IMG/VR virus record: IMGVR_UViG_3300024272_000034 | Source: a virus | Reading direction: 5' to 3' (one strand) | Length of the DNA: 64,000 nucleotides | In this document: piece after piece, positions 12,846 to 62,592 of the stretch | Position numbering within the stretch: position 1 is the first letter of the stretch | Layout: each line of letters begins with the position of its first letter | The notes under the pieces: generated by a model | Seen by the model: only the letters and a program-made list of their open reading frames with translations | The model's database searches: none | Told to the model about the DNA's origin: nothing | Position numbers and translations under genes: made by a program

Positions 12846-12872
12846 AGAATATGGAGAGAAAGGAGATTGGTT

Positions 12873-27964: not shown

Positions 27965-28026
27965 TAAATAAATTGGACAAATGATATTAGTTTCTTTGAA
28001 AGAAAATTGAAATTTAAAGAAGAAAA

Positions 28027-28060
28027 GGGATGAAGAATTAATTTCTTCATCCCTTATTTT
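28027..28060 (+). terminator. rho-independent terminator
   Basis: GGGATGAAGAA-TTAA-TTTCTTCATCCC hairpin followed by TTATTTT. Confidence 0.65.
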
Positions 28061-28085
28061 AATTTGTGCGAAAGGAGAAATTAAT

Positions 28086-31000
28086 ATGGGAAACAATGCT
28101 GTTTTTCGTGTTGCTCGTGGATTAGATGAAAAAATAAATCAATTACCGTATGATGATGGTAAAGTTTATTTTGCTATTGATACTAAAAAAATTTATTTAG
28201 ATGCGAATGAACAAAGAACACCAATGGGTGGAAATACTGGTATTTATTATGGTAAAGCCGATTTTACTGGTGAAATTGGACCAACTTTTATCTTTAAATT
28301 TGAAGATATTGATGGTGATAATTTACCTAATATTAATGATTTAATTTTAAATAGCGATGGTAGTTTCTATAAAGTTATATAGATTTTAAATGAAGATGGT
28401 GAAATCTTTACCGAAAAATTAACAATTGCTGGTTCTGGTGGAGGAGGAGCTAATCCAGATGAACCTAGAGGAGAAATTAGTGTTGATATAAAATTTGATT
28501 CTACTGTAATTGTTGGTGAAAAAATTTTATTAAAAATTAAATTATTAGCAACAGATGCAGAGGGCCAAAATACTGGTGATGGCCGATATGAAATTAAATT
28601 ATAGAATATATTAAAAAAGAGCGGTACTTTAATTAATTCTGCAGGAGAAGATGAAGCTATTGAAAATTTAATTGATATTACTGATTTGTGTGTATTACCT
28701 GGAGATTATACTTTTAGAGTGAATTGCTATGCAGATACTGGTAATCTTGAACCTGAAGTAGTACCAAGAAACATTAAAATTAAAGTAGTTAATTTTACTA
28801 CTACTTGGAATTATACAGATACTACTATTAATAGTGTTTATTCTGATTTTACTATGACTTGGAGTACTAATGTTCAAGATGATAGTTATAGAGCTTATAT
28901 TGTAATTGATGATATTTATCCTTTTGATATTAAAGGAACTTCACTACATATTGCAAAAGAAAATTTAGCTGATTATGGTTTAAAACATGGCGCTCATAAA
29001 ATTGAATTACAATCTTTCGCTAAATTTGGTAATAGTTTAACTGAAAAATCAAGTAATAAGATTATAAAAAATGTAATCTTTTATGATAATGATCCAAATA
29101 TAACAAATTATATTATTGCTTGTGATTTCTTTGAAACTAATGTATAGCAATATAATACAATTCAATTACCAGTAATGATTTATCATGCAAGTAATATAAA
29201 TGGTACAGCAACAATTACATTTAAAACAAATAATAAAGTAACTGAATTAACAAATTGTAAAAATTTAACTAAATATATTTTTACTTATACTCCAGATAAA
29301 GCAGGATTTATTCCATTACAATTTTTAAGTGGTGGAACGACATTAGATTTAAATTTAAATGTAGAAGCTTTAGATATTAATGTTCAAGAAGTTTCTGGTT
29401 ATGAATTTAAATTTAAAGCAACAGATTTTGCTAATGATGAAGAAGTTAAACAATGGACTTGTAAGAATAAGCAAATTGAATTTTCTGAAAATTTTGACTG
29501 GATTAATGGCGGTTTAAAAAATGGAGATAATGATATCGGACCTTATTTTAGAATACAAGCTGGACATTGGATGAAAATTCCTTATAAACTTTTTGAAGAA
29601 GATTTAAAAAATACTGGTGCTTGTTTTAAAATGGTTTTTAAAGCTTATAATTGTAGAGATTATGATGCTACATTTATTAATTGTTTATCAAATGATAAAG
29701 GATTGGAAATGAAAGCATAGGGTGCTAATATCATATTAAATTCTAAAAAATCATTAAATACTCGTTATTGTGAAGATACATATATTGAATATGAATTTGA
29801 TATATGCAAATTTAATGAATCTAATAGAAGTGACCAATATTATACAATTTGGTTAGATGGTATACCTGCCAATGTTGATAATATGGGTATTACAGATTCA
29901 TTTTTACAAGCTAATGCGCAAGATTTAATTATTGGTTCAGAAGATTGTGATGTATTTATTTATTTAATTAAATTTTATAAAAAACATTTAACATTTAATG
30001 AACATTTATAGAATTTTATTATTGATGTACCAAATGCTAATGAAATTTTATCAAGATATGTACGTAATGATATAATTCTTAAAGATTCTTATGGTAATGA
30101 ATATATATCTCCTGAATTATTAGCTGAAAAAAATCCAGAATGTAATGTCTATTTGCTTGAAGTGCCATACATTCCAACTTCCAAAGATGATGTAAGTATT
30201 CCTAATCCAGATGATCCAAATAATCCTAATAAAGAATGTTGTACTTTTTCTCATTTAAAAGGTAGTAAAAATCATTTACGTGATTATAGTGGTGTTAAAG
30301 TACGCGCGCAAGGTACATCTTCAATGGACTATGGCATAGCGGCTTATAATATGGATATTAAATTTCCAGAAAAATGGAGTATGGATGAAGAAGCAATTCC
30401 AGTAAATTATATGAATATGAAAGTTAATGTTGCTTCTTGTGAAGGAGCAAATAATGCTTTAAATCAAGAATGGTATAATAGATATTAGCCATATAAAACT
30501 CAAAAACGTTTAGCTAATAAAAATGCTCGTGATACAATGGAATTTAAAAATGGCGTTGTATTTATTAAAGATAATAATACAAGTACAAATAGTGCTCCAA
30601 CAAATAATAATGCTTTTGTTGAAATTGAAGGATATGTAAATAAACCTTATCATCGTATGTATTCTATTTGTAATTTAGGTAATTCAAAAAAGAATATAGA
30701 TGTATTCCATGGTCAAGGTAATTAGTATGAGTGCTGTGTTGAAGTAAATGATAATAATACTAGCGGACAACGTATGGTTTCACTTAATGGTTTTTATGAA
30801 GCTAATAAAGACTTAGGTGTTGAAGAACATGAAGTAGAATTAAATTTAAGTGATGATTTATTTGATGAAAACGGTTTTGTTAAACCAGGAGTTGATTGGG
30901 GAAAAACCTATGATGCCCAACTTGAAGGCAATGAAAATTTTACTGAAGAATAGAGATGGATTGATAATAAAATGCTATGGAATAATGCAATAATAAAAGA

Positions 31001-34000
31001 AGGTATTTATGGTTTTAGATATTGCATTGATAAAGATGATTTTATTGCATCTGAAGAATTTCCTACTTATGATGATTATGAATAGGAAATTAGTAATAGA
31101 TTTTTAAGATTAGTTAGATGGTTTGTAAAAAATAATCCTTCTCAAGCTACTAACGCTCCATTAGAAAATCCAATTGAATTTCCAACTTATATAATTAAAG
31201 GTATTAAAGAAACCGCTTATGCTAACTATAATGCTACTGAAATATTAGCTGGTACAGAAGTTAAAGAAGGACTTACATTTACAGTAGATTCTTCTGCCTA
31301 TAGAGTTGCAAAAATGCTTAGAGAGAGTGAAAATTATTTAATTTTAGACTCTATTTTCTATCATTATATTTTTATTGAACGACACAGTATGTTAGATAAT
31401 GTTGCTAAGAACACGTTCTGGAATACTGAAGATGGTATTCATTGGGAATTAACTAAAAACTATGATAATGATACAGCGGATGGAATTAATAATAGTGGAC
31501 ATTTAGCACTTGATTATGGCGTTGAAATTATGGATAATACAACTGATGGAAAAGAAATATTTAATGCTAGACCTTCATCATGGTTACATTTCGCACACGG
31601 ATGTTTATCATTAAGAGAAAAAATGTATTCTGCATTATTTAATACAAAGGATGATACTAATGCTTGGTCTGCTAATAAATACTTAGAATTATTTGAAAGT
31701 TGGCAAAATGCTATTCCAGAAATTTGTTGGATTCAAGATTTTTATAGAAAATATTTTAGACCTAATGATATTTATGGTGATGCATCTTATTTAGCGCGTT
31801 TAGCGAGTGGTAAAAAAACACATCAAAGAAAATAGTATGAACTTTATCAAGAACAATATCTTGATTCTGAATATAAAACATGTGCTAGACGTGGTGAAGC
31901 TATTTCCTGGCGTTCTATGTAGCCAAGTGATCCTGAAATTATGATTGATAATAAATATGTTTTAGGAGCTACTGTAAAAATGTATGCTGATGGATATTTT
32001 GCTATGGCTCTTGCTAATGGAGCTGGTACAGAAGAATCTGTAAATATTCATATAAGAGGTAAAAAAGGTTAGTTAATTAATTTCTCAAAATCTTAGGAAA
32101 CAAATTTTAATGATGCGACTTGTTATATATATGGTCCAAGTTTATATCAAGAATTTATTCATGCTGAATCAATATATCCTAGTTATATTACAGCTACAAA
32201 TGCAACTAAATTAAGAAAATTTAGTCTTGAACCAATGTATAATAGTTAGAAAATTATGCTTAAAACTAGCTTATCTTTTGGAGATAATTTAGAAGAATTA
32301 ATTTTAAAAGATTGTTTAAGTATTCTTGATGAAACTAGTGGAAAACCAACCAGTATTGACTTAAATTTAAAGAATTGTGTACGCTTAAAAAAGATTGATA
32401 CAACTAATAGTACTTTATTTGCAAGTTATGAAATTGCAGATGGTGCTCCATTAGAAGAATTTTATATTCATCAACCAACTGGTTTATATTTATAGAATTT
32501 AAGATATTTAAATAAAAATAAATTCAATATTGAAAATTATGATTCATTAACATCTATTTAGATTAATAATATTGATTATAATGATATTAATAGTATTGAT
32601 ATTTTAAATAATGTTTATAGACATAATAATTCAATTATATATAATTTAGAAAATGTAAAATGGAAGTTTAATAATGAAGATAATATCACCGATACTAATA
32701 TTCCACTATTGGATTATTTGTTAACTCAATCATTAGCAATTGCTGGCAAAACGAAAGCTTTATCTTTAACAGGTTCAGCAATTATACCATATGAAGCATA
32801 TGATGGAATTAACTTATTAAGTTTATATGAAAAATATGGATTAGATTCTGGTGAAAAAGATAATACTTATCCAAATTTAATTTTAAATTTCCTTGATAAT
32901 AATGAAAATTCTAGATTATATACTATCAATATTGAAAATGGTGATGGTTAGATTGTTTGGACAAGATAGGTAGATAATTTTAATACATTAACAAATGAGA
33001 TTTTATCCAATAGTGCTTTGGGAGCTTTTGACGCAACTGCTGCAATTGCTAAATCTTATAGCAATGAATTTGTTTATAATTTTGCCAATTCTTGGGAATA
33101 TATAATTAATAATGAAATTAAACCTATAGAACCATTAGATGAATAGGGAATGTATTAGTATTTAGATATGTCTAAATTATAGAATGTTAATGAATCTAAT
33201 ATTACTATTCGTCCAGTATATATAACAGATACTCGTTATTATACAATTCAAATATATGATGTGTGGGGAGAAAAAATTCATGAAGCAAAAGTTGAATATT
33301 TAGCTTCTTTTGATGAAGTGCGTCCTCCAGTTCTTCCATTAATGAATGATTCTAATTTGGAATTAGAAAAGACATATTATTTAAAAGGATATGGAACTGT
33401 TAGAACTGATAATAGTATCATTAATGAACAAGATTGGAAAGCCACAGCTGATTTAATTTTATATACAAAATTTGAAGAAAAAAATGTATATGATATTGAT
33501 TATTCTTCTTATTTAGATATAGATACAACTGGTACTGTATTAAATGGTTTAAAGAAAAATAAAAATGATGAATATATTTATTAGGGGCAGAAAATTGTAA
33601 TTCCAAAGTCTATTCAAACGATAGCAACTAAGGCTTTTGGTTTTGAACAAAACGATAAAGCACAAAGTAGTAAAACTAATTTAACAAAAGTTTTTTTTGA
33701 AACAAATAGTAATTTAATGTATATTAATAAAGCTGCTTTTGGTTATTCTAACCTTGAATATTTTGAATTTGTTAATTCTATTGAAAGAATTGGTGAACAA
33801 GCTTTTAGAGGATGTAATTTATAGGCTATTAATTATAATGGTATATTAAAATTACCAACTTCTTTAAAACAAATTGGTTAGCATGCTTTTAATAGTTCTT
33901 TCGGTTCAATAACATAGAATGTAGAATTATTCGTGCAGATCCCATCAACTATTATAGAAATAGATAGTTATGGTTTAGCTCACTGGGGACCAATAAAAGC

Positions 34001-34238
34001 TGATATTGCTATTGGTTCTTCCAATAGTTTTTCTAATTTAAGTTTAGAAAAAACTCAAGGTGGAGTACCAATTATAAGTAGTAACTATGGTAATGATAAA
34101 GATATTTGTAATATTTATTTTTATACTAAAAATTATAAAGATAATAGCATTATTAATGGTATTCTTATTGGTGAATTTTTTGATGATAAAAATTTAAGTA
34201 GTAATTATAATATTACTGTTCATTATATTGATTCGTGA
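28086..34238 (+). CDS. giant (2050 aa) host-recognition/tail protein with C-terminal BspA-type leucine-rich repeats
   Basis: RBS AAAGGAGAAA upstream. Ten track ORF fragments are in one frame joined only by TAG, ending at TGA 34236-34238. The C-terminal region (IPKSIQTIATKAFGF...INKAAFGYSNLEYFEF...IGEQAFRGCNL...LKQIGQHAF) matches the BspA-like LRR pattern. Confidence 0.65.
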
Positions 34239-34568: not shown

Positions 34569-36471
34569 ATGATTACAAAAGTAACGGAACAAAATTCTGT
34601 AAAATATCAAAAATTATTCAGAGAAGCTGAAGAATTATTAAAAAGTACTGGTACTGAAGATATTGTAGTTGGAGAAACAATTGACGATTTATATGAATAT
34701 TTTATTGCTTTTCCTTCAATCTTAAATGCGGCCGCTATTAAAGATGCTTCTGATGATAATAAAACTGGTGATCCTGAATATTACCAAAAGTATTTTACTA
34801 TATTACCTTTAGATGAACCAGTATTTGAAATTAATGCTGATACTCGTGCGATTACAATTCCACAGCAATTTAAAAGTATTGGTGTAACTGGTGATAATAT
34901 TGCGGAAATTGTTTTCTTTTCTATTGATAGATTCTTTGATGCTGTTGATTTTGGTGCTCCTGAAATTGAAGCTGTAATTGAATGGCATCGTACTACCGGA
35001 GATAATCAAGATACTTATGTTGATAAAGCTTATATAAAAGAATTAACATTAAAAGAAAATAAAGTTTTAATTGGATGGGTTATTGATGAACGCATTACTG
35101 AAGAGCCTGGTACAATTGAATTTGCTGTAAGATTGGTTATGAAAGACGAAAAAAATGAAATTATTTATAGTTTTAGTACATCAGCAGCAAAAGTAAATAT
35201 TAATAAAACACTTAATTTTTATCCAGATGCTACTGAAATTGATAATACGGCGATTGCGCAAGTTAAAGCTCGTATTTTAGCAACTAATTCGCCTGATGTA
35301 TCAAATGAAAATTCTTTAAATGCTCCAGCATATAATATTATAGAAGACGATGGTGATGAAATATCTACAAATATTGATTCTATGGTTGATGATGAAGGAA
35401 AACCATTAACATATTCTTATACTTCTACTAATGATTTTTATGCCGATTTTAATGATGAAGATAATGCTTTAGTAGTAAATGTTAAAGCTAGAAGTACTAA
35501 TGGTAATGGAGATGAACGTCTTCTTTATCGTTGGTTTAAATGGAATGAAAATGATAAAAACTGGCAAGCTTATCCTATTGGAGCTGTTGAAGCAGTTGAT
35601 GGAAATCAAACTATTATTGATTCTATTGGTAAATTTAAATGTGTAGCAATAGATAATGTTGGTATTCGTAGAGCGACAAAAGATAGCCAAATTCTTCATA
35701 TTCTTGGTCCATAGAAACCAGAAGTTAAAACTGCTGATGAAGGAGTTTATACTTCTATAATTTTAACCAATGAAGCAGATGGTATGGAATTAAATGTAAA
35801 ACCAGGTCATGAAAATGATGTATTTTATGTTGATAATTATGATATTAATAATAAAACAAAATTATCTTATGAATGGAAAAAGAGCAATAATCTTAATGAT
35901 ACTATTAAGATTGATATTGAAGATGCTTATGAACAAAAATATCAAGCAAAAGAAGAGGGCTATTATTATGGTTATGCTATAACTTAGCGTAATTTAAAAA
36001 TTGAAACATCTGATGAAGCTAGTATATATCGTGTAACTAAGCCTTTAATTCAACCTACTTTATAGTATACTGTATTAGGATTATAGAATGGTACTAATGG
36101 TAAAATTGGAGAAACTATTGAAATTGATTTTAGCACTTATGATGATGAAGGCAATGTATTAACAACTTATGCTTATGATACAATTGATTATTAGTGGTAT
36201 CGTTCTATGAATCAAAATCAAGGTGATAGTAGTTATCAAAAAGTTGAAGATGAAGACTATAATCAAGGACATCTTACAGCTACTGATAGAAAAATTTTAT
36301 TTACACCAAAAACTCCAGCAGCTTATAGAATTAAATTATTGGTTAAACGTAATGGATAGAGTATTCCTGAAAAAGATTTTGATGAAAATGATTCATCCAC
36401 TTGGCCAATGTTAAATCAATTATAGACCAATGGAACTTATGATGAATTAACTATTTCAATGAGCATAGATT
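34569..36471 (+). CDS. structural protein with Ig-like C-terminal region (634 aa); N-terminal domain paralogous to the gene at 36496
   Basis: RBS AAAGGATGAA upstream. Track ORFs 34569 and 35784 are joined through TAG. It ends at TAA 36469-36471. Confidence 0.55.
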
Positions 36472-36495
36472 AATCAATAAAGGAGGTTATAAGAT

Positions 36496-37059
36496 ATGAT
36501 AACCAATCCGGTTGATTATTACAATAAAATATTATAGATAAAAGATTTAAATAAACCTCAATATGCGCTTTTGCTTCCAACAGATGAAACAATTTATGAT
36601 ATTGATTTATCTACAAGAGAAGTTAAAGCACCTAAATTTTTAAGTTTACACAAAGATCATTATGCGGAAACCATTTATTTTAAAGTTGATAGATTTTTTG
36701 ATAATATGGATTTAGCAGATACAGTTTGTACTATTTAGTATGTAAATGATGGTGTAAAAAAACTTACAGGTGAAGCTGATGCGGGTCGCATTTATTTAGT
36801 ACCATTTTTTGATATTTTTACATATCGTGATGACAATAAAATGCTTATTCCTTGGCAAATTAGTGGTTTAGTAGCTAGAGCTCCTGGTAATATAACCTTT
36901 TCATTTAGATTTTATAAATTAAATGAAACAGGAGATTTTATTTATTGTTTAAATACTTCTCCTGCTACAAGTAAAATTCTTAATGGATTAGATTTAAAAC
37001 TTCCAGAAAATGATGAAGGTTATATGGAAGCAGGAATTGTAGATGATATTTATCATTAG
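36496..37059 (+). CDS. hypothetical protein (187 aa), paralog of the N-terminal domain of the gene at 34569
   Basis: RBS AAGGAGG upstream. Shared motif: LPxDEx[FY][ED]I[ND]xxTRx[IV]xxP ... AExx[FY]F.[IV]DRFFD.[VM]D[FL]. Confidence 0.5.
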
Positions 37060-37114
37060 ATAGATATTGTGAGTAAAGCTACTGATTTATATTGGATTGA
37101 AGTTGAATAAAAAT

Positions 37115-37143
37115 TTGACATAAATAAAAATTTATGTTATAAT
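37115..37143 (+). promoter_or_regulatory. consensus sigma-A promoter TTGACA-N17-TATAAT at the head of the rSAM cassette
   Basis: Exact hexamers with a 17-nt spacer. Confidence 0.6.
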
Positions 37144-37177
37144 AATATAAAAGAAAAGAAAGGTTAGGTATTTAATT

Positions 37178-37483
37178 ATGGCAACTACTTTAACAATTAA
37201 TTATTCTGTAAATGGAGTAGAAAAGAATCTTATATTAACTGAAATTACTAGATGTTCTGAAGATTTTAAATCTGAATATGTTTCTTTAAATATTTCTTGT
37301 AATGATATTGTTGAAAATAGTATTTTAGGTGAATTAATGAATTCTATAATTTCTGATATCATTTTTATAGAAGACTCTGAAACTACCACTTTTACTAATT
37401 ATACTCGTCTTTATAATATTAATCGTTCTTATAAAGGTGAAGGTTCTTCTTTAACTTTTAATTTAAGAGAATATTTTAATTAA
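37178..37483 (+). CDS. hypothetical protein (101 aa, no TAG), first gene of the cassette
   Basis: RBS AAAGGTTAGG upstream. A clean ORF. Confidence 0.45.
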   Translation: MATTLTINYSVNGVEKNLILTEITRCSEDFKSEYVSLNISCNDIVENSILGELMNSIISDIIFIEDSETTTFTNYTRLYNINRSYKGEGSSLTFNLREYFN

Positions 37484-37519
37484 TTTATTAAATTAAAATG
37501 AATAAAGGAGGAATAATTT

Positions 37520-38689
37520 ATGGCAGCTGATGATAAAATATTAGCAACGTAGATTAGTACAAATTCTTCTTCCTGGTATCAAAGATTAAGAGCTATTTAG
37601 GCAAATAATAAAACAGGTATAGGCGGGTCTGCTTTATAGCAGACCGCCGACCCTGGTATCACTTCAGGAACGAAGATGACAGCAACACATATTAATAATT
37701 TTATTAATGCTTTAACAGCTTTAAAATCAAATGTATTTTTAGCTTATGCGGATTGGACTAATTATACTCCTTCTACTGTTTCTAGTGGTGGAAAAGCTAA
37801 TGCTTCTACTACATAGACTAAAATTAATAATATGTTAACATCACTAGAAAGTATATGTAGTAATTGTTAGACATATAGTACAAATAGTTATTCTAATACT
37901 TGTTCAAATAATGCTACAACTAGTTATTCAACCTATTCGGAAAGTATTGATAAATATAATTATTCTAATACATGTAAAACTACTTATAATTCCACAGAAT
38001 CTACAAACTCTACTTGGAGTGAAAGCTGTAAAACAACTTCTAATAGTACTAATAGCTATTGTTCTGATGCTAATTGTAGCGCTTATAGCGAGAATGAAAC
38101 TTGTGCAGAATTTTATGTTGGTAATAGCACTTATTCTACAGATAGCACTAGCTCAAATTCTACTTATGGAGTTGGAGATTCTACTTAGGCAACAGATGCT
38201 ACTTCTGTTTGTGCTACTTTATCAACTTATAATGATGAAATATCTTATAGTACAGATTGTAGTGATGGTTGTTGGGATTGTACTTTTCATTCTTATTGTC
38301 CTGCAGCTGAAGTAGCTACTTATAGCGTCGGAGAGTGTTCAACTAATGCTACTAATTCTGAAAATTCAACAGAAGGAGTTTGTAGCACTTGTAGTACTAA
38401 TTCTACTGATTTTTATTGTAATGAAAACTCTTGTACTGAACATACAAATAGAGGTACATATTCAAATCATTCACAATGTAGTACTTGTGGAAAAAACAGT
38501 ACATATAATGATACTTGTCAAACTTGTGAGACTGATTCAACCACATCAAATACAACTTATACTTAGTCAAATTCTACATATACTAACACTAATGATGGTT
38601 ATAGTACATATTCAAAAAAAGCTACATATGGAACATATACTAATACAAGTGGTAATTCAACATATTAGACTTATACGGTAAAAAATTAA
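37520..38689 (+). CDS. Cys/Ser/Thr/Asn/Tyr-rich protein (389 aa, 22 Cys, 9 in-frame TAG); candidate rSAM substrate
   Basis: RBS AAAGGAGGAA upstream. Codon-by-codon translation gives an ordinary ~100-aa N-terminal region, then ~290 aa of low-complexity S/T/N/Y-rich sequence with CxxC and Cx2-6C spacings (SICSNCQTY, SYCSDANCSAY, DCSDGCWDCTFHSYCP, CSTCSTNS, CNENSCTEH, CSTCGKNS, CQTCETDS). It ends at TAA 38687-38689. Confidence 0.6.
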
Positions 38690-38719
38690 TTGAAATGAGA
38701 TAAAGGAGAAAATATTTTA

Positions 38720-40078
38720 ATGTTACAAGATAGAGAAACAATTATTTTATATACTACAGCAGTATGTAATTTAAATTGTACTTATTGTTTTATTGATAAA
38801 AATCCAAGTTTAAAAAAGATAGATCAATGGCTTGATGATAGTTTTTTAAAAACTCCAGATTATTATTTTGAATATGCAAAAAAAGCCGTTTTACAAGAAA
38901 AACTAAAAGAAGTATAGATTTGGGGTGGAGAACCTTTTTTGGGTATGCATAGAGCCTATGCAACAATAGATAAATTTATTAATTATTTTCCAAATTTAAA
39001 AAATTTTATGACTTCTACAAATTTTGTATCTCATTGTTTTTTTGAAGAATTTTATGGACTTCTTGATATTTTTAGAAAGCATCCAAATAGAAATTTTACA
39101 TATAGTTTATAGTTATCATTAGATGGTGTAAAGGAAATAAATGATATTAATAGAGGTAATGGAGTTACTGATCGTTTTATTATTAATTTTGAAAAATTTG
39201 TTAAAGAATTACAAACTTTATTACCAAACAATTTAACATTAAAAATGCATTTAAAGCCCACTATTGATACAAATTCTTTGAAAAAATTATAGACTAAAGA
39301 ACAAGTTTTTGAACAATTTATCTTTTTTGAAAGCTTCAATGAAGTATATTTGAAATATAATAAAAAAAATAATTTACTATTTTCACTTCCAATTCCTAAT
39401 ACAGCTTGCCCATCTCCTCATACTCAAGAAGATGGAATAATGTTTGCAAATTATTGTAAAATAACAAGAGAGCTTGAAAAAGAAAATAAAAATAATAAAA
39501 TTTTTAAATTTTATAATAATATTACAAGCTTTACTCCAAGAAGAAAAATTCAATATGACAAACTTTCATTATCAGGATATTGTCAAGGTCATTGTGGTAA
39601 TGGAAAAAGAGCTATTGGTCTTTTACCTAACAATATGGTTTCTTGTTGTCATAATGGTTTTGTTGATTTGCTAGCTGAATATAAAAAGAATGTATTAACA
39701 AATAGTGAACATATGGATAATGTTACTATTGAAAAAAGTTTATTTAAAAATAAACGTAATACTTTAATTTTCCCTTATGATAGTAAAGAATTTGAAATGT
39801 ATCAAAAACAATTAGAAGTTTTTTATCAAAATGATGATACTGCCAAAATTTCTAATTGTGCTTCTTTAATTAAATTATTGGCTGATTTTGAACAAATTGA
39901 TAAAAAATATCAAGATAAAAAAGAAGCTGTTAAAGGTGCTTATTTTATTTTTAATACTACATCATATTGTGTTAGAGATAATTTAGGTGTGACTGGAAGC
40001 ATCTATATGTATCCTGTTGGTTTAATTAAATTATTGCTAAATGGAGCTAGAGAATATATTGAGGAAGGATGTAATTAA
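38720..40078 (+). CDS. radical SAM enzyme with C-terminal Cys-rich (SPASM/twitch-like) region (452 aa, 3 TAG)
   Basis: CNLNCTYC (CxxxCxxC) near the N-terminus and GGEP in IWGGEPFL. C-terminal cluster CQGHCGNGKRA...SCCHNGF. Track ORFs 38720 and 39350 are in frame across TAG. Confidence 0.7.
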
Positions 40079-41467
40079 ATGGCAAAGTGTTTAAATTTTT
40101 AGGAAGAAAAAGATGTTATTTTATGGTCATTAATTAATGATACATTTGGAAGACTTTTTTCTAAAGAAAAAAAAGAAGATATTGAACATGATATGGGGTT
40201 AGAAATTTATATAACCCCTGAATGTAATTAGAATTGTTCTTATTGTTATTTATGTAAAAATGGTGATGAACTTTATCCTAAAGAATTAAGAAATCCTACA
40301 ATAATTTTAAATAATTTAAAAATTATGTTAGATTATTGTATTGATAATAATTGGAATCCTGGAAGATTTGATTTTTTTTCTGGAGAAATTTGGGATACTG
40401 ATTTAGGTTATAATGTTTTAAGCATTACAGAAGAAGCAATAGAAAGAGGTTTTCACCCTAGACTAATTGTAATTCCATCAAATTTTAGTTTTATTTTAAA
40501 TGAAGAAGCTAAAAATAGAGTTGAAAAATTTATGGAAAAATGTAGACAATTTAATATAAAGCCATGTTGGTCTTGTTCTAATGATGGTTTATTGTTAGAT
40601 TTAGAGACAAGACCATTTAATTCAGATGAATTAAATGCAAAAAAAGATACTGAAGATTATTATAAAAAATTATTTGAATTTTGTAAAAAATGGAATTTAG
40701 GTTTTCATCCAATGGTGGCAGCACACGGAATTGAAAAATGGTCAGAAAATTTTTTATGGTGGATGTCAGAATTAAAGAAATATAAATTTGAAAGAAATTC
40801 TTCAATAATGTTTTTAGAAGTTAGAAACGATGATTGGACAGATGATAAAATTTATCATTATTTAAAATATTTAAATACTAGTATTAATTATTTAAATGAT
40901 GAATGTATTAATTTAAATACATTGTCTTTTGAAGATTATGTTAGAAAAACTAATAAAAATATTAAATACAATTATACACCTGTTATTTTAGAAAAATCAA
41001 GTTTATAGCCTGGATGCACTATTCATAGATCTTTAGTTATTCGTTTAGGTGATTTAGCAATAGTTCCTTGTCATAGAACTTCTTATGAAGAATTTATTAT
41101 AGGACATTTTAAAGTAGAGAATAATAAAATTATAGGAGTTACAGCTAAAAATATTCAAATAATGAATTAGGTATGGCTAAATAATATGAGTGGTAATGCT
41201 AAATGCACTAATTGTCCTTATAGCAATTACTGTATGAAAGGATGTTATGGTTCTTAGTTTGAATCTACTGGAGAATTATTATATCCAATAGAATCAGTAT
41301 GCAATTTATATAAAGCAAGAGCAATATTTATTTTTTATAAATATTTAAAAATGGGTATTTATAGAGAAGATAATCCCGAGGATAAAAAATATTTTGATTT
41401 TATTCAATCAATTAAAGATACGAAGGAGTTTAAAAAATGGTACAAAATTGTTTAGGAATTGATTTAA
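40079..41467 (+). CDS. second radical SAM enzyme with C-terminal Cys cluster (462 aa, 5 TAG)
   Basis: Start overlaps the upstream stop (TAAATG). The rSAM motif is CN(TAG)NCSYC, i.e. CxxxCxxC if TAG is sense. C-terminal CTNCPYSNYCMKGCYGS resembles SPASM. Track ORF 40325..41008 is in frame. Confidence 0.65.
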
Positions 41468-42036
41468 TTAATATTTATGAAAATCTTATCATAAATGGAT
41501 TAAATGTAGAATTAGCAAAAGATATTGAAAAATATTTGATTTATTTTTTAGACAATAACACTAATGAAAATTAGTTATTATTATATAATTTATTAAATAT
41601 TTTAAAACGTCAATAGAATACATCAATTCTTCTAAATTTTTTAATTCAAGAAGTTGAATTAAAGTTATTAAGATTAAGTTTTTCTAATAATGATATAAAA
41701 AATAATAAAGATTGTTATAATATTTCATCTTGTCAAAAAAATGAATCTAAAGAAGAATTAAAGAAAATTTTAAAAGTAACTAATAAAGATTTATTCCCTC
41801 CAAAAGGGACTACAACTCGTATTATTAATAAAAGAAAAGAAGAAAATGAAGAACATGAATATGTTTTAGAGATAGATGATCAAGGTAATGTTTTAGAAAT
41901 TTTAGAACATTATATAACAAAAAATGATGCAGATTCTATTGATATATTAAATGATTCTCCTTTAAGCAAACTTAAAGAAAAATATCTTAAAGAAGATAAA
42001 GAAAATAATTCTTTAACAGAAAATGATTTAGAATAA
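41437..42036 (+). CDS. hypothetical protein (199 aa, 2 TAG) overlapping the rSAM gene end
   Basis: Frame +2 relative to the previous gene. Acidic C-terminal half. Function unknown. Confidence 0.45.
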
Positions 42037-42061
42037 TATTAATAATTTAAATATTTCTAAA

Positions 42062-43138
42062 ATGGGATTAGGAATTATGCGTCATAATTCTAATCAACAA
42101 TATACAAAACAACTAATAGAATATGCTTTAAATAATAAAATTAATTATTTTGAAGCTTGTGATTTCTATTTACAAAACGCTTGTGAAATACGTCTTGGGG
42201 ATGCTTTAAAATAGCATCCTCGGACTTCATATAAATTATGTGATAAACTTCCATTATCTACAATTCCTTATTTTATTCAAAAAAATAAAAATTGGAATTT
42301 AAATGATTATTTTAATAATCAATTAGCAAAATGTAGAACTGATTATTTTGATGTTTATTTGATTTAGGCTTTAGATGAACGTAATTTTAATTACTTGGAA
42401 AAATATCAAATTATTGATTTCTTTTTAAAACAAAAAGAACAAGGAAAAATTAAATTATTGGGTTTTTCTTTTCATGGAAAAGTTGATATTTTAAAAAAAT
42501 TATTAGAAATGAAATGTTGGGATATCGTTTAGTTTCAATTAAATTATTATGATTGGATTTTAGGTGAGGCGAAAGAATTATATTTTTTAACAAAAGAATA
42601 TGATTTACCTATTATTACAATGGGACCAACTAAAGGCGGATTATTAATAAATAATTTACCTAAAAAATCATTAGATAGATTAAAAGAAAACAATATTAAT
42701 CCAGTCTATTTATGTTATTCTTTTTTAGAAACTTTAGACAACGTTAAAATTATTTTATCAGGAGCAGAAACTTATGAAATGATTAAAGATAATTTAAATT
42801 ATTTTGAAAATGAATCTCATAAATTAACTCCAGAAGAGTGGTAGCATATTAAACAAAATATTCAAGATTATCAAGAATAGAGTTTAATTCAATGTACGGG
42901 ATGTCGTTATTGTGTTCAAAGATGTCCTGCTAATTTACCAATAGATAAAATTTTTAAAGAATATAATAATTTTATTCAATCTAAAGATTTATAGTCAAGA
43001 GAATTTTTATATTAGAATATTCATAGTTCTAACTCTACACAGAATTGTAAAAATTGTGGTCAATGTGTAAAAATTTGTCCGCAACATTTAAATATTCCAG
43101 AAATTTTTCATAAACAAATTTTCCCAGTAAGGAGATGA
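42062..43138 (+). CDS. aldo/keto reductase-fold oxidoreductase fused to a 2x[4Fe-4S] ferredoxin domain (358 aa, 7 TAG)
   Basis: N-terminal AKR-like pattern (LGIMR...INYFEACDFY...LGDALK...KLLGFSFHG...ITMGPTKGGLL). C-terminal CTGCRYCVQRCP and CKNCGQCVKICP. Ends at TGA 43136-43138. Confidence 0.65.
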
Positions 43139-43142
43139 AAAA

Positions 43143-43553
43143 ATGGTAGTATCTGAATTAGTAGCTACAATTTTTCAAGTTTGTATAATTCCATTATTGG
43201 GTGTATTAACTACTTTTTTTGTAAAATGGGTTAATTCCAAAAGCGCAGAAATCTCAAATAAAATTGATGATGAAACATTAAATAAATATTTAAATATGCT
43301 TACTGAAACAATTAATACTTGCGTTTTAGCAACCAATTAGACATATGTTGAAAGTTTAAAACAACAAGGAAAGTTTGATGCGGAAGCGCAGAAAGAAGCA
43401 TTTAATTTAACTTGTTCAGCAGTAATGGATATTTTAAGTGAGGACGCAAAAGAATATTTAACTTCTGCTATTGGAGATTTACAAATTTATATTACAAAGA
43501 AAATTGAAGCTGAAGTACATACAAATAAAGTTACACCTTGTGTAAATCAATAA
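43143..43553 (+). CDS. small membrane protein (136 aa, 1 TAG), N-terminal TM helix
   Basis: RBS AAGGAGATGAAAAA upstream. Hydrophobic N-terminus LVATIFQVCIIPLLGVLTTFFV. Last gene before the terminator. Confidence 0.5.
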
Positions 43554-43563
43554 AATAAATATA

Positions 43564-43604
43564 GGGGAACCTTTAGTATAATCTAAAGGTTCCCCTTATT
43601 TTTG
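43564..43604 (+). terminator. rho-independent terminator closing the cassette
   Basis: GGGGAACCTTTAG-TATAAT-CTAAAGGTTCCCC hairpin followed by TTATTTTTG. Confidence 0.75.
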
Positions 43605-43620
43605 TTTATATTAAATTCTA

Positions 43621-44314
43621 TTATAAGTAAGCCAACGTTCACGAATTAAATCATGAGATTTTTTGGGAAAATATAATACTTCATCATTTTCAAAAGTTAA
43701 ATGGTCAGTATCAATAATCTTAATTTCACTTAAATTAATCAATAAACTTGTGCTAAAAATAAAAATTGCGGATGTTGGTTCAATGGAGTTATTGCTTTTT
43801 CAAAAGATGAGCGCAATGACTAACCATCAAACATTGTTCCATTTTTTAAATGATAACATAAACAACGTTTTACAATGTTAATATAATTAACTTGACTTGA
43901 GCGTATTCTTCTTTCACCTTCCGCAGTTTTAATTACCAAACTATCTTCTCTTATCTCTTTTTTAATTATATTAAATAATTCAAACAATTCTTCTTTTTCT
44001 ATTGGTTTTAAAAAATAATGATCTGCATGCACTTTATAAGCAGGATAAGCGAGAGAAGGATCTTCTCCAATAAAAATAAAATAACTATTTGGGTCTATTT
44101 TATCCATGCGATGACTTAACTCATATAGATTTTCTGATGAATCAGTGTCCATAATATAAACATCAAAACTTGCAGGAACAACAAGTAAATCTTCTGATTT
44201 ATCAAAAATTGATACTTTTGCCACAGACTTAGATTCTATTAAATATTCTTGAATCATCTCACGCAATTCATTTAAATATGTTTTGTTGTCATCATAAATA
44301 GCAATAGAGAGCAT
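43621..44314 (-). pseudogene. LytTR-family response regulator (receiver + LytTR DNA-binding domain), interrupted by an apparent -1 frameshift
   Basis: Track ORF 43820..44314 encodes the receiver-like N-terminus and the start of LytTR (VIKTAEGERRIRSSQVNYINIVKRCLCYHLKNGTMFDG). The domain continues through a TAG. It ends in another frame (LINLSEIKIIDTDHLTFENDEVLYFPKKSHDLIRERWLTYNRI, stop at 43621-43623). The shift falls in a T-rich tract (CAATTTTTATTTTTAGC). The cause could be a true frameshift, programmed slippage or a sequencing error. Confidence 0.5.
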
Positions 44315-47561: not shown

Positions 47562-47630
47562 GAAATTATTCATATGGCAAATCTTCTCTTTAAGAGGTTA
47601 AAAGATGAAAGAGAAGAAGAAAGAAAAAAT

Positions 47631-47668
47631 GGGAGTATCTAATAATTTAGATACTCCCATTTTTTTTG
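47631..47668. terminator. bidirectional rho-independent terminator between the convergent modules
   Basis: GGGAGTATCT-AATAATTT-AGATACTCCC hairpin with an A run upstream and a T run downstream. Confidence 0.7.
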
Positions 47669-48106
47669 TTATATATTACAATCTCGTACTTCTAACTTCA
47701 TCGCACTTTCATAATAATTTTTAGCTTGACCATTGCCGCCCAAAGAAGTATATAATTTATAAAATTCAGTTAATTGGTCATACTAGTCGGGAGTCATAAA
47801 TCCTTGTCTAATAAATCCTTTGCATAATTGAACTAAACGGAAACGATAAGAAGAAATAATTAAATTCATGTGATTCTTTTCTACTTGACCCACATTATAG
47901 ATATAAGACCTTAATTCTTCAAGCTCCTATTGAATTGGTTCAATTTTACTGTCAATTGTTTCATTCAATTTGTCAGTCTCTTGGTCTGCTAAAAGCTTTT
48001 TATAATTTTTCATTTGACTATGCATATATTTACAAAAAGCTAAAGCACCAGCAGAAATTAAACCAAAAATAATTTCAATGAAATGTTCAGTTAAAAAAGC
48101 TAACAT
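47669..48106 (-). CDS. membrane protein with N-terminal TM helix (145 aa, 2 in-frame TAG)
   Basis: The reverse-strand frame is open through two TAG codons. N-terminal hydrophobic FIEIIFGLISAGALAF. It was missing from the ORF track because TAG splits it. Confidence 0.45.
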
Positions 48107-48172
48107 TATAACAAATCCCCTTTCTTAAAATTTTTTCTCACACTATATCAATTTTAAGTAAGGGGATTTTAT

Positions 48173-48664
48173 TTATTCAGACCAATCAAATGATTTTGCC
48201 TAAGAGTTTAGATACCAGTGACCAATACATATTGCGTCACTTTCATCTTCTGTAGCTTGTTTATTATAAAGCGTTTTTATTAATAACTAAGCTTCTTTTT
48301 TCTACTCTGGACGAGTTCTACTTTTTATACCGATTTTACTTTTCCATACTGTAGCTAATACAGCTTCAACTGGTATATCTAATTCTACAATCAATTCATA
48401 AATAACACCAAATACTTCTGCTAATGTTTTAAAGGTTTGAACATTTCCTGTTACATTAGATTGAAGTTGTATATCTTCCATTATAACTTTATTAATAGAA
48501 TAAGTATCAATTAATTGATGAACATTTTTTCTAATATTAAGCAATCTATCTCCTAAATCGGATTGATTACAAGTAAAATGTCCATAATCAATTAATTGAT
48601 TATCTTCAAATATAGCATATCCAGTTATTTTAGAAGACTAATCTAAAGATAAGATTCTGCTCAT
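48173..48664 (-). CDS. ruvC: RuvC-family Holliday junction resolvase (163 aa, 4 in-frame TAG)
   Basis: N-terminus MSRILSLD(TAG)SSKITGYAIFED matches the RuvC/YqgF catalytic motif. C-terminal DESDAICIGHWY matches the acidic motif. ATGA start/stop overlap with dut. Confidence 0.6.
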
Positions 48665-49356
48665 ACTGATTCAAAAACATCTGCTTTTAATCCAAGAGAA
48701 TTAAAAACATCAAGTAATTTTTCATCAATTTTAATTTCGTTATTTAAATTAATTGATTGTAAAGAAGTAGAACCAAATCCGCCTGTTCGTAAGCCAATAG
48801 CTACATCATCTTCAATGGTATAATAAGGTTTAATAATTCCTTGACCAATAATATCTCCTCGTTTTAATTGAATATCAAATGGAGATAAATTAATTAATTG
48901 AAAGAAAATTTCACCTTCATTATCAGGATTATTATAATAATCAGCGTCAATAATACCAACTCCATTAGCAAGAATAAGCCAATATTTTAAAGGAGTAGAA
49001 GACCGCACGCTTAATTCAAGATAAGTATTTGGAAGTAATTCACATTTCATTCCAGTAGAAACTAAAGAAGGTTTAATTTTTGATGCTTTAGTAACAGCGG
49101 CAACATCTTCAAGAGTATAAGGTTTACTCATCTTTTGCGCAAGCTCATATTCAGCCTTCTTCTTTTCTTCTGAGTCAATTACATTCTAATGTAATTGGAA
49201 TAGTTCATATCTACCAAGCCAATTCAATTCTTCAGAACAAGATGGAATTATAATATCTTCAGCTACAACAAAATCATATCCAGCGCTCTGTTCTGTTTTT
49301 CTAATTGGTAAAGGTAAATCAATATCATTAAATCTACTTACTTTTTCAAATTTCAT
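48661..49356 (-). CDS. dut: dUTPase-family protein (231 aa) with an ~80-aa insert carrying one in-frame TAG
   Basis: Track ORF 48661..49131 carries motifs 2-5 (GIIDADYYNN, RTGGFGST). The same frame continues upstream through one TAG to ATG 49354-49356, adding motif 1 (SAGYDF). Confidence 0.6.
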
Positions 49357-49601
49357 TATTCTACCTCATAATTAATATTAACAAAACTTATCGGGTCTTT
49401 TTCATCATTGAAATGTTTGTTTAAAGTAACTTTATACCAACTATCAATAACTGCACCTTTAGATTTTCTTTCTTTAAATTCACTAGAATATTTTGCTAAT
49501 GAAAATTCAGTAGCATTCTTAGCTTCATCAATAATTTCTTTTACTTCATTTTCATTATCTACTCTATATACTTCAATTGTACTTACAAGATATTTTGACA
49601 T
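49356..49601 (-). CDS. hypothetical protein (81 aa)
   Basis: RBS GAGGT upstream. TAATG overlap with dut. Confidence 0.4.
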   Translation of the reverse strand: MSKYLVSTIEVYRVDNENEVKEIIDEAKNATEFSLAKYSSEFKERKSKGAVIDSWYKVTLNKHFNDEKDPISFVNINYEVE

Positions 49602-49602
49602 T

Positions 49603-49863
49603 TTAATTTACCTCAATATTAATTTTTTTAGTATTATAATTTTTTACATTATACATTTGAATATCTTCAATAAAACCTTCAAGATATCCTTCATTACCAT
49701 ATAGGTGAATATTGTATATATCATATGTATAACAACTACTAACAATTACTTCTGCTAAATTATCAATAGTTGTTGAAGCTATTTCTCGCTTACCATTATC
49801 ATCATAAATAAATATATACTAATCAGTATTAAATAAATTAACTGAACTAACAATATAACTCAT
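49603..49863 (-). CDS. hypothetical protein (86 aa, 1 in-frame TAG)
   Basis: Reverse frame is open from ATG 49861-49863 through one TAG to TAA. Confidence 0.35.
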
Positions 49864-49864
49864 T

Positions 49865-50215
49865 TTATCCTCCATATGAAACCATTAAACCTTCACAATC
49901 AAATAAGCACATACATAAATTTTCATCTTCATTTGTCCGCACCCAAATTTCAATTGTATCAGAAGCTTCCATATAATCAACAGTAATAATCTTACCAATA
50001 TCTAAAGCGCAAGTAAGAACTGCTTTTCCTTTATTTTCAAAATCCGATTCGTTTGCTTTTGGATAGAAAATAGTATAATAAGAAATTTCTTTACATAAAA
50101 GCATTAAATTTGAATAATTTTTCATTTTATCATTAATTAATTCAATATAAGGGTCTATATTATCTGCTATTGGAAGCTATGAAACAATAGATTTATTTAA
50201 ATCATATAGATTCAT
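49865..50215 (-). CDS. hypothetical protein (~116 aa with upstream extension through one TAG; start uncertain, alternative start at 50125)
   Basis: Track ORF 49865..50125. The frame stays open upstream through a TAG to ATG 50213-50215. Confidence 0.35.
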
Positions 50216-50299
50216 AGAAATATTTCCATAATCTTTAGATTCTTTTTTTAAATTACACTTCATTATTTATCTCCTTTTTTATTTTATATAATAATTATA

Positions 50300-50782
50300 T
50301 CATATTTTTTTATTTTTGTCAAGATAAATAATACGTTGATTGCGGCTTCCTCTCATAGGAAGTGTAATGTCTCTTTCAGCTTCAATATAAGGTCCATCAA
50401 TTAAACAAGTAATTAATTCTAAAATTTCTTTTATATTTGGATTATGAGGTAAATCATCGTAAGTATACCCTGTCCATAAATAAATTTCTGTATCTGGTAA
50501 TTTTTCTTTAACAGTTTTTATTACCAATAAAGTCAAAAAAGTATTTTCAGGACATAAAGGTTCTCCACCCAAAATACTTAAAGAACGCTTAATACCATTA
50601 GCTTGAAGAGCTTCAATTATTTCATTAATTACATCAGTAGTAAATTCTAGTCCTCCGTCATAATCCCAAGTTTCGGGATTATGACAGCCAAGACAATGAT
50701 GCGGACATCCTTGAGTATAGAAAGAAACTGATACACCAGTTGCCGCAGAAAAATCATTTTTAATTAAACCTGCATATCGCAT
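50300..50782 (-). CDS. nrdG: anaerobic ribonucleotide reductase activating protein (160 aa)
   Basis: GCPHHCLGCHNPETW (CxxxCxxC radical-SAM cluster) after the GVSVSFYTQ motif. Adjacent to nrdD. No TAG. Confidence 0.75.
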   Translation of the reverse strand: MRYAGLIKNDFSAATGVSVSFYTQGCPHHCLGCHNPETWDYDGGLEFTTDVINEIIEALQANGIKRSLSILGGEPLCPENTFLTLLVIKTVKEKLPDTEIYLWTGYTYDDLPHNPNIKEILELITCLIDGPYIEAERDITLPMRGSRNQRIIYLDKNKKI

Positions 50783-51411
50783 TATTCTTCCTCCTCTAAG
50801 TCTAAATCATGAACATCATCTGGATTAGCTACTTCGTAATAAAATATACATCTACAACTGGGATGATATGGTGGGAGATTAACATCTTCATCTGGCGGAT
50901 ATTCTCCGCCTTCACACATATCACATCCACTTTCAATTACTAATAAAGTAGCATTAATAGGTCTTTTATTTTTCTTTACTGCATTTTCTACATTTTTAGT
51001 TTCTGTATTTAAAATTCTTTCAAATTTATAAACTAAATTATCTCTTATTTCTTTATAAGTTTTTTCTTTTAAAATATCTTGTCTTGTCTCTTCCCAAATT
51101 AAAGACAATCTATCTTGAATTGTTTTTCCATCTTCTTTATAAGTTAAATCAAAGATATTTTTGATATTAAATTCTTCTACTTCTTCATATAATTTTTCTA
51201 TATATTTACTTGTAATAAGATATGTTTCAGTTAATGATTCATAAAATAAATCTTCAATTTTTTTATATGCTTTATCCCAAAGTTTAATATTAAAATTATT
51301 TGAATATTCTCTGACAGCTTTTAAAGATTTATTTATAATTTTTTCAAAATATTTATCTTTAGATTCGTCAATTAAATCTTCTAATTTAAGTATTTCTTTT
51401 CTGATACTCAT
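50782..51411 (-). CDS. hypothetical protein with C-terminal zinc-ribbon-like Cys motif (209 aa)
   Basis: Clean ORF between nrdD and nrdG. The C-terminus has CDMCEGG...HPSCRC. Confidence 0.45.
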   Translation of the reverse strand: MSIRKEILKLEDLIDESKDKYFEKIINKSLKAVREYSNNFNIKLWDKAYKKIEDLFYESLTETYLITSKYIEKLYEEVEEFNIKNIFDLTYKEDGKTIQDRLSLIWEETRQDILKEKTYKEIRDNLVYKFERILNTETKNVENAVKKNKRPINATLLVIESGCDMCEGGEYPPDEDVNLPPYHPSCRCIFYYEVANPDDVHDLDLEEEE

Positions 51412-51416
51412 AACAA

Positions 51417-53708: not shown

Positions 53709-53778
53709 TAATAAATCCTCCGAAAATATTAATTTGGGGCGACCCTATTATATTTAATAGTTGTTTTTTTATGGTTAA

Positions 53779-54333: not shown

Positions 54334-54559
54334 TTATGTCAATAGCCTCATCTTCATATTCATATTTTAATTGATTAGGTAATTCATTACGATAAAAAGT
54401 ATATTTCCTTTTACAGGTAGGACAAAAATAAACATACTGTTCAGGATAAGTACATAAAACTTTACCAGTACTTTTTATTTCTTCATTACAATCTTCACAA
54501 TAAAAGCTATCTATATAGATAGCTTTTACATATCGTCTTTTAATTTTCATCTTCTTCAA
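54320..54559 (-). CDS. small zinc-ribbon protein (79 aa)
   Basis: CEDCNEE...CPTCKRKY. Overlaps its neighbours. Confidence 0.4.
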   Translation of the reverse strand: MKKMKIKRRYVKAIYIDSFYCEDCNEEIKSTGKVLCTYPEQYVYFCPTCKRKYTFYRNELPNQLKYEYEDEAIDINEEV

Positions 54560-59600: not shown

Positions 59601-59662
59601 ATATATTCACTCTCCATTTTTATTTTTTCATATAAATATTATACCATATTTTATATGAAAAA

Positions 59663-59857: not shown

Positions 59858-59860
59858 AGA

Positions 59861-61051: not shown

Positions 61052-61053
61052 TT

Positions 61054-61643: not shown

Positions 61644-61723
61644 AAATATATTTACCCCTCACTTATTATTATTTCTATATATATTATATCATATTTTTTT
61701 ATAAAAATCAAAAAGGGAAGATT

Positions 61724-62554: not shown

Positions 62555-62592
62555 AATTTTTCTCCTAATATTTCTATTAGGTCTATCGTGTT

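Follow-up and report, generated by a model that had tools for sequence, protein, structure and literature searches.

The stretch of DNA analysed here (IMG/VR virus record IMGVR_UViG_3300024272_000034; 64,000 nucleotides (nt), hereafter the window) is a low-GC (~28%) segment of the genome of a gut phage with a recoded stop codon, in which the gene that we call T, located at positions 37520-38689, encodes a protein of 389 amino acids (aa) with a cysteine-rich, low-complexity tail. Directly downstream of T are two genes, R1 and R2, that encode enzymes of the radical S-adenosylmethionine (radical-SAM) class. Based on the gene context, we infer that T is the dedicated substrate of R1 and R2; taken as a whole this model seems to us somewhat probable, and the functional linkage of T with the two enzymes, considered alone, deserves greater confidence. 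What the sequences show is the gene, its protein family, the classes of the two enzymes and the strict linkage of the genes; the substrate role of T, the type of bond and the final location of the product are our interpretation. The initial annotation of T, made from the sequence alone, had proposed a giant radical-SAM substrate on the basis of cysteine spacing, or else a phage surface protein. The substrate proposal is strongly supported by the context of the gene, while the spacing argument on which it stood did not hold; the surface-protein proposal is compatible with the position of T between tail-fibre and lysis genes. The genes of the module that the argument needs are the following.

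37520-38689, plus strand: T, the target protein, 389 aa, with eight TAG codons read as Gln; homologues P0001-P0046, 209 family clusters
38720-40078, plus strand: R1, radical-SAM enzyme, 452 aa, with CNLNCTYC and GGEP; Pfam Radical_SAM, 4e-8; phrog_1802
40079-41467, plus strand: R2, radical-SAM/SPASM enzyme, 462 aa, with CNQNCSYC and the 7-Cys SPASM signature (...CxxCx5Cx3C...C)
41437-42036, plus strand: S, acidic protein of ~199 aa, overlapping the end of R2 and the start of AKR
42023-43138, plus strand: AKR, fusion of an aldo-keto reductase with a 2x[4Fe-4S] ferredoxin domain; Pfam matches Aldo_ket_red, 7.5e-25, and Fer4_9, 1e-10

Linkage of T with R1 and R2 in related loci

The order T-R1-R2-S was found in all eight of the T-homologue loci that we looked up (L001, L003, L005, L007, L008, L011, L012 and L013). 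Orthology across these loci was confirmed by BLAST; AKR may be present or absent, and in two of them the T tail is free of cysteine. Scans with an R2 alignment provided 11 loci from metagenome-assembled genomes (Clostridia and Bacilli) and 45 IMG/VR loci, many of the latter on phage contigs of 120-200 kb. In these, R1 accompanies R2 on every contig that reaches far enough upstream, and in most of the 56 loci the pair adjoins a T-type N-terminal domain (N-domain) or a T-like low-complexity protein. The order T, R1, R2 persists even where R2 is only 29-36% identical and the surrounding genes change. The T slot can also hold a different type of protein: in L010 it is occupied by a 243-aa CxxxC-repeat protein, and in L035 the T N-domain is joined to a Cxxx-type tail with 45 cysteines.

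T is the likeliest substrate of R1 and R2 because its linkage to them preserves gene order over deep divergence, because Cxxx-repeat proteins can replace it in the same slot, because a YcaO gene occasionally accompanies it, and because of the enzyme class to which R2 belongs. The YcaO-domain gene (PF02624, 2e-29) lies directly upstream of a T-type protein in L020:38-2194, sharing one open frame with it if TAG counts as a sense codon, and suggests an additional backbone modification in that phage.

A search of 50,697 GenBank phage records, with the module DNA and with T and R2 by tblastn, returned no relevant match, and single-sequence searches of IMG/VR with T and R1 returned none. In the searchable literature, we found no description of a T-R1-R2 module.

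The radical-SAM enzymes R1 and R2

R1 scores 34 bits against the Pfam Radical_SAM model, above the cut-off of 29.5. Its cluster motif begins at residue 16, and CxxxCxxC and GGEP are both kept in 18 of 18 orthologues. Further cysteines are conserved towards the C-terminus (C292, C310 and C417, with C246 present in 16 of the 18), and from its sequence R1 probably has one auxiliary cluster. The maturases DynA, rSAM_vs_C_rich, YhhB and PapB gave weak NCBIfam matches to R1, each with a score lower than its cut-off by an order of magnitude.

R2 is recognized by the SPASM model TIGR04085 with 31.4 bits (cut-off 27). The cysteines C50, C54 and C57 are invariant in 30 of 30 homologues, as are those of the SPASM region, C316, C334, C379-x2-C382-x5-C388-x3-C392 and C411. 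Phmmer comparison of R1 and R2 with PDB sequences gave nothing meaningful, while a profile of R2 found CteB (5wgg, 5e-5) as its best PDB match. The AlphaFold2 model of an R2 relative that is 60% identical (P0047) has a predicted local distance difference test score (pLDDT) of 91.5, and a Foldseek search with this model ranked anSMEcpe (4k37, E = 3e-8), CteB, ChlB, SuiB and TigE at the top. All five are protein- or peptide-modifying SPASM enzymes. The database holds 673 relatives of R2, and none of the 120 listed is named. The idea that R1 and R2 are recent paralogues was rejected, as the cluster motif is all that they have in common.

Architecture of the T family

A database search with T yielded 46 relatives (P0001-P0046), and a profile of its N-terminal part, compared with 1.84 billion representative sequences, identified 209 clusters at E <= 0.001. 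The members consist of three parts, i.e., an N-domain of ~115 aa, a polar low-complexity tail of 60-364 aa and a short C-terminal motif, which in T are located as follows.

37520-37864, plus strand: N-terminal helical domain (aa 1-115), from alignments and from an AlphaFold2 prediction for the homologue P0001
37865-38665, plus strand: low-complexity polar tail (aa 116-382), with 21 Cys, rich in S/T/N/Y, enriched in NST(Y/F/W) and predicted to be disordered
38666-38686, plus strand: C-terminal motif Q-T-Y-T-V-K-N; family consensus [STNGAQ]-[YF]-x-[VI]

The N-domain sits at residues 1-110 in nearly all of the 209 clusters. In the alignments, W19 and A77 are invariant, N59 is invariant or nearly so, and L23, N71, I102 and N115 are nearly invariant. 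The domain ends at an I/V-C-x-N boundary, which reads I-C-S-N in T. Structure prediction was run on P0001, a homologue 42% identical to T. AlphaFold2 returned a four-helix N-domain, with pLDDT values of 81-94 over most of it, followed by a tail with values of 30-40; according to this model, the N-domain is predicted with confidence to be a helical bundle and the tail to be disordered. A Foldseek search of the P0001 model against BFVD and PDB gave no fold match below E = 1. Likewise, T remained unmatched in Pfam, NCBIfam and PHROG, even at permissive thresholds (E <= 10 for Pfam and E <= 1 for NCBIfam).

The first ~100 residues had initially been described as ordinary in sequence and leader-like. 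The former is correct; the latter is not borne out, since the N-domain is folded and is positioned internally or C-terminally in some relatives, and thus it does not look like a disposable leader. In L011, an extra N-terminal domain of ~190 aa precedes the T domain. In L023:5603-6454, FSFPSSNF repeats occupy the N-terminal part and a weak match to the helical domain (E = 0.009) lies at the C-terminus, reversing the usual order.

Statistics on tail cysteines and on the C-terminal motif were taken over 153 family members. The motif [STNGAQ]-[YF]-x-[VI] occurs within the last 25 residues of 100 of them, compared with 6 +/- 2 in control windows. The tail contains a median of seven cysteines (4.8%), with a range of 0-26. 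Between T and its nearest relatives the N-domain is 44-68% identical and the tail 21-36%, and the type of tail differs between subfamilies (S/T/N/Y-rich, D/E/G/Y-rich, with FSQNSTN or SNGT repeats, or Cxxx-like). In one close subfamily of 21 sequences, the tail is about twice as variable as the N-domain, and seven of its nine cysteine columns are invariant. Conservation of cysteine spacing is therefore found within this close subfamily, but not across the family as a whole.

N-x-S/T sequons are enriched in the tails of the family, with 994 observed and 763 +/- 21 expected. Considering also that GT2-like ORFs (open reading frames) lie near about ten modules, the tails of some phages may be glycosylated as well.

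Composition and short motifs of the T tail

The description of T as a 389-aa protein with 22 cysteines and an S/T/N/Y-rich low-complexity core is correct. The cysteines span residues 113-336 and account for 5.7% of the protein; the pooled value for 22 other window genes is 1.0%, with 0-0.7% in most of their virion-type members. Serine and threonine together represent 36% of T and 13% of the same 22 genes. In the region from residue 116 to the C-terminus (aa 116-389), the content of S+T is 40%, that of N 12% and that of aromatic residues 12%; its 21 cysteines correspond to a 5.5-fold enrichment over the rest of the window's genes.

The spacing of these cysteines, emphasized in the initial annotation, is at the level expected from composition. 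When the tail was shuffled, C-S/T pairs (10 observed and 8.5 expected, p = 0.31), Cx2-6C (8 and 5.7, p = 0.17), CxxC (4 and 1.5, p = 0.06) and Cx3C (1 and 1.5) were all at chance, and a cysteine-spacing motif was rejected on this ground. Other short motifs depart from chance. NST occurs 10 times with 1.3 expected and NST[YFW] six times with 0.14 expected, both clearly non-random; C[STAKG]T occurs seven times with 2.3 expected (p = 0.004). The anSME motif C/S-x-P/A-x-R has no occurrence in T, and this idea was discarded. The possibility that tandem DNA repeats or a template of the type used by diversity-generating retroelements underlie the variability of the tail was also rejected, as neither a tandem DNA array in the T tail nor a template repeat for it was found.

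Comparison with known systems

By sequence, T resembles none of the systems with which a comparison had been suggested, i.e., SCIFF, ranthipeptide and QhpC precursors and cysteine-rich spore-coat proteins. The module does show the general features of radical-SAM/SPASM maturation: a radical-SAM motif in R1 and R2, a 7-Cys SPASM region in R2 and an adjacent, co-oriented gene for the putative precursor.

In the CXXX-repeat systems (maturase TIGR04115; target PF27846, tSAM_targ_Cxxx_rpt), as in the T module, a cysteine-rich low-complexity protein is encoded beside an enzyme of the radical-SAM/SPASM type. The relatives L010 and L035 carry true CxxxC repeats in the target slot, and in L005 such a system lies nearby. 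In contrast, T has no Pfam match at E <= 10, its Cx3C count is at chance, and R1 reaches 24.4 bits against a TIGR04115 cut-off of 350; the T module is, moreover, phage-borne, with two enzymes and a folded N-domain of 115 aa. CXXX-repeat systems were defined bioinformatically, and we know of no biochemical characterization of them.

R2 has the same 7-Cys SPASM architecture as the SCIFF, ranthipeptide (CteB, PapB) and sactipeptide synthases. CteB is the PDB entry closest to R2 by sequence and, behind anSMEcpe, the second closest by fold, and T is cysteine-rich with abundant Asp/Asn/Thr acceptors. However, T has 389 aa instead of ~45 aa and lacks the conserved six-Cys pattern, there is no RiPP recognition element (RRE; RiPP, a peptide synthesized by the ribosome and then modified post-translationally), and some relatives of T are Cys-free. 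The scores of R2 are 32.5 bits for TIGR03974 (cut-off 425) and 36.8 bits for NF047865 (cut-off 340).

The anSME enzymes share with R2 more than their place as its top structural neighbour: R2 likewise has no RRE, and its substrate would be a full-length protein that stays uncleaved after modification. Nevertheless, T has neither C/S-x-P/A-x-R nor a sulfatase domain, and its module has two enzymes instead of one. QhpC, the gamma subunit of quinohemoprotein amine dehydrogenase, is cross-linked by the radical-SAM/SPASM enzyme QhpD, and this pair is a precedent for a protein that keeps its structural role after receiving Cys-to-Asp/Glu thioethers from a radical-SAM enzyme. The TIGR03906 scores of 17.8 and 15.3 bits (cut-off 453), the lack of dehydrogenase genes in the operon and the family search, in which T is not similar to QhpC, separate the two systems. 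Finally, the His-Xaa-Ser (HxsA with HxsB/HxsC) and GrrA/GrrM systems also combine a repetitive low-complexity target with radical-SAM enzymes, one or two in number. Among the weak matches are the HxsC and GrrM models, with negligible scores (12-16 bits, cut-offs 268-310); the repeat chemistry differs, and these systems are bacterial, not late-operon modules of phages.

The module is thus best described as a phage-borne variant of radical-SAM/SPASM maturation with repetitive targets that passes the sequence-defined tests of none of these systems. It is distinguished from them by two new enzyme families and by an unusually large substrate family that retains a folded domain.

Alternative explanations

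Several observations weigh against T as the substrate of R1 and R2. Every link between T and the enzymes is one of gene context. The cysteine spacings in T are at chance, and cysteine number and position vary across the family: the tail has no cysteine in four of the 153 relatives and two or fewer in 22. Because of these four tails, thioether formation cannot be the universal chemistry of the family. The initial annotation had regarded orthologues without cysteines as evidence against its proposal; such orthologues exist, yet in the two such loci looked up both R1 and R2 are retained. For all curated maturase families in NCBIfam, R1 and R2 score well under the cut-off, and no RRE domain is recognizable in either; in the structural model, R2 has a single helix ahead of its core. 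The lower-ranked fold matches of R2 include the sugar-modifying radical-SAM enzymes DesII and SpeY, S matches nothing in the family searches, and the accessory genes of the modules (AKR, a GT2 glycosyltransferase and the conserved genes n1 and n2) could equally serve a small-molecule or sugar pathway.

The main rival, which we consider unlikely, is that T is an ordinary structural or adhesive protein of the phage, such as a fibre, whisker or decoration protein with a mucin-like polar tail. In that case the radical-SAM, AKR and glycosyltransferase genes would belong to an independent pathway, with a small molecule, a sugar, or the cell wall or DNA of the host as its target, and they would adjoin T only through a shared late timing. 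T has no PHROG, Pfam, BFVD or PDB match at all; its position in the late tail-to-lysis block, between tail-fibre-type genes (including that of a 2076-aa protein whose relatives have LRR_5) and lysis genes, is compatible with such a role, as is the fusion of the T domain behind another domain in L011. AKR, GT2 and n1/n2 do resemble small-molecule tailoring genes; nevertheless, many modules are without AKR and GT2, but not without T, R1 and R2. Similarly, the dispensability of the tail cysteines in some members and the enrichment in sequons, which fits glycosylation rather than radical chemistry, favour a structural role, whereas the fact that T-like proteins give way at this position to Cxxx-repeat proteins, a class of radical-SAM targets defined by bioinformatics, argues for a modified one. 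Two further points tell against a separate pathway: gene order is kept at 29-36% R2 identity amid changing neighbours, and the structures nearest to R2 are those of peptide- and protein-modifying enzymes.

That T is a classical RiPP precursor, with the N-domain cleaved as a leader and the modified tail, or pieces of it, released at lysis, e.g., as a bacteriocin against competitors, is improbable. The layout does resemble a leader and core with adjacent maturases, YcaO, a typical RiPP enzyme, is adjacent in one locus, and long leaders (~90-100 aa) are found in NHLP and proteusin precursors. However, the N-domain of T matches no known leader family and can be internal (L011) or C-terminal (L023), the C-terminus is conserved, and the tails reach 364 aa. 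In addition, neither a peptidase, a C39-ABC exporter or other transporter nor an immunity gene was seen among the annotated domains of the modules examined, in which an RRE was also not found.

Proposed mechanism

Our preferred reading, in which T is modified by R1 and R2, can be put as a sequence of steps. Expression of T, R1 and R2 would be late, apparently as a single operon whose last gene encodes a holin. The N-domain and the C-terminal motif may be the conserved handles by which T docks to the enzymes, to S and/or to the virion, and the disordered polar tail between these handles would be the part that is modified. R1 and R2 would abstract hydrogen from residues of the tail, leading to intramolecular cross-links, with the AKR-ferredoxin fusion supplying or recycling electrons. 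In a cysteine-rich protein such as T, the cross-links would most plausibly be thioethers from the cysteine sulfur to carbon. NST(Y/F/W) is a possible site of a Cys-independent bond, which we propose because Cys-free relatives keep both enzymes.

The product would stay full length; at lysis it would be released or assembled, in the form of a covalently stapled module resistant to proteases. We favour a full-length product over a cleaved and secreted RiPP because the N-domain is folded and varies in position among relatives, the C-terminus is conserved, genes for cleavage and export were not seen, and the module is part of a late operon beside tail and lysis genes. More specifically, and only tentatively, we suggest that in phages of gut Clostridia a late, virion-associated protein has its disordered tail densely cross-linked by the radical-SAM pair, through bonds that depend neither on oxygen nor on disulfides. 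To our knowledge, radical-SAM post-translational modification of a phage structural protein has no earlier example.

If T is indeed a substrate, the reach of radical-SAM maturation would go beyond short peptides and include a phage protein family of 200-470 aa with at least 209 sequence clusters, and two uncharacterized enzyme families would be involved, that of R2 alone having 673 database relatives. Phages of strict anaerobes could then make covalently stabilized extracellular proteins without disulfides, and the naturally diverse tails processed by related enzymes would constitute a library for RiPP chemists. The module would also represent a new class of late phage gene module, unmatched in the 50,697 GenBank phage records searched. 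In the case of a cross-linked, virion-associated T, the product would be a 'giant RiPP' still attached to its folded N-domain, made by two new maturase families, of which at least one would have a Cys-independent chemistry at NST(Y/F/W).

Reading frame of T and the meaning of TAG

The frame of T is open from the ATG at 37520 to the TAA at 38687-38689 and, with TAG as a sense codon, encodes 389 aa. Eight in-frame TAG codons, one fewer than the nine first counted, occur at residues 11, 27, 40, 99, 117, 223, 349 and 383 (nt 37550, 37598, 37637, 37814, 37868, 38186, 38564 and 38666). The reading of TAG as Gln in T is supported by sequence alignment, since residues 11 and 27 match CAA/CAG Gln codons of homologous genes.

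In the window, the summed length of ORFs of at least 100 codons increases from 41.9 to 71.3 kb once TAG is taken as sense, and TAG is read through in every large late gene of the phage. These codons are dense in the plus-strand late genes (positions 1-47600), with 78 in the ORF at 2832-12761 and 25 in that at 28011-34238, and the minus-strand replication genes (47600-64000), which include NrdD and a DnaE-type polymerase, hold 0-1 each. The resulting giant late ORFs, 2832-12761, 12780-18230 and 28011-34238, have 3310, 1817 and 2076 codons, respectively, counting the stop; homologues of the 28011-34238 product contain LRR_5 repeats. No tRNA gene, including those for suppressor tRNAs, was found in the window. 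A crAss-like identity of the phage was rejected, its replication genes being those of a DnaE-type polymerase and NrdD.

The Leu/Ile-rich ORFs at 37911-38315 and 38346-38681 are both the +1 frame of T and, as had been noted, artefacts of this gene. A check for another conserved frame left frame 1 as the real one, as it holds the N-domain of the family and ends in the family C-terminal motif (QTYTVKN). The C-terminal ends of the homologues P0002 and P0013 become rich in Leu/Ile/Met/Val and match these alternative-frame ORFs, which looks like a frameshift or a gene-call artefact. That the low-complexity region is noncoding in the T frame, or that the ORF is an artefact of TAG read-through, could be suspected from the eight TAG codons and from the open alternative frame of 281 codons in the same region, but is already refuted by the family evidence: all large late genes read through TAG (one of them 78 times), T TAG positions align with Gln codons, the N-domain, tail and C-terminal motif are common to 209 family clusters in the T frame, and the alternative frame is Leu/Ile-rich nonsense found only at the frameshifted ends of two database entries.

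Genes around the module

The T module is located between tail-fibre-type genes, that of the 2076-aa protein and others, and lysis genes. Besides the genes listed above, the following features belong to its surroundings.

37115-37143, plus strand: promoter-like site TTGACA-17-TATAAT, a 12/12 match with TG extension; consensus match only
37178-37483, plus strand: gene of 101 aa directly upstream of T, no family matches
43143-43553, plus strand: holin, the last gene ahead of the terminator; phrog_13712 holin, 1e-31
43563-43596, both strands: hairpin resembling a bidirectional intrinsic terminator, with a 14-bp stem and T runs on both strands

The genes are co-oriented, with 30 nt between the T stop and the R1 start, 0 nt between R1 and R2, and an overlap at the later R2-S junction. 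Between the promoter-like site, the sole 12/12 match within 36400-43800, and the terminator lie the 101-aa gene, T, R1, R2, S, AKR and the holin gene. Since one promoter-like site and one terminator flank the whole set, the sequence suggests that the holin is co-transcribed with the modification module. In the close relatives L001, L003, L007 and L008, the position upstream of T is taken by a gene of 105-122 aa, the likeness being one of size and place. All complete modules examined encode, in the S slot, a protein of 141-241 aa with weak conservation, and S itself has no family match in Pfam, PHROG or NCBIfam.

AKR-ferredoxin orthologues were found in L005, L007, L010, L011 and L012. Roughly half of the modules, including L021, L026, L040 and L042, have the fusion downstream of R2/S; it may serve either to donate electrons specifically to the radical-SAM enzymes or as a tailoring reductase. 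The GT2 glycosyltransferase is encoded at L012:12290-13390, and similar ORFs adjoin the module in L025, L027, L030, L031, L035 and L043-L045. The conserved genes n1 (~279 aa) and n2 (~294 aa), which have no Pfam or PHROG match, are located at L005:15105-16821 and also occur in L007, L019, L021-L023, L026, L040, L042, L046 and L056.

Additionally, a second radical-SAM gene of another kind, uR, is present in some of these large phages (L005:6353-9255, L026:1366-4269, L010:3163-4845 and L068:1532-3409). In L005 and L026, uR is close to the gene of a CxxxC-repeat protein, with a weak PF27846 match in L005, which gives two radical-SAM/target systems per genome.

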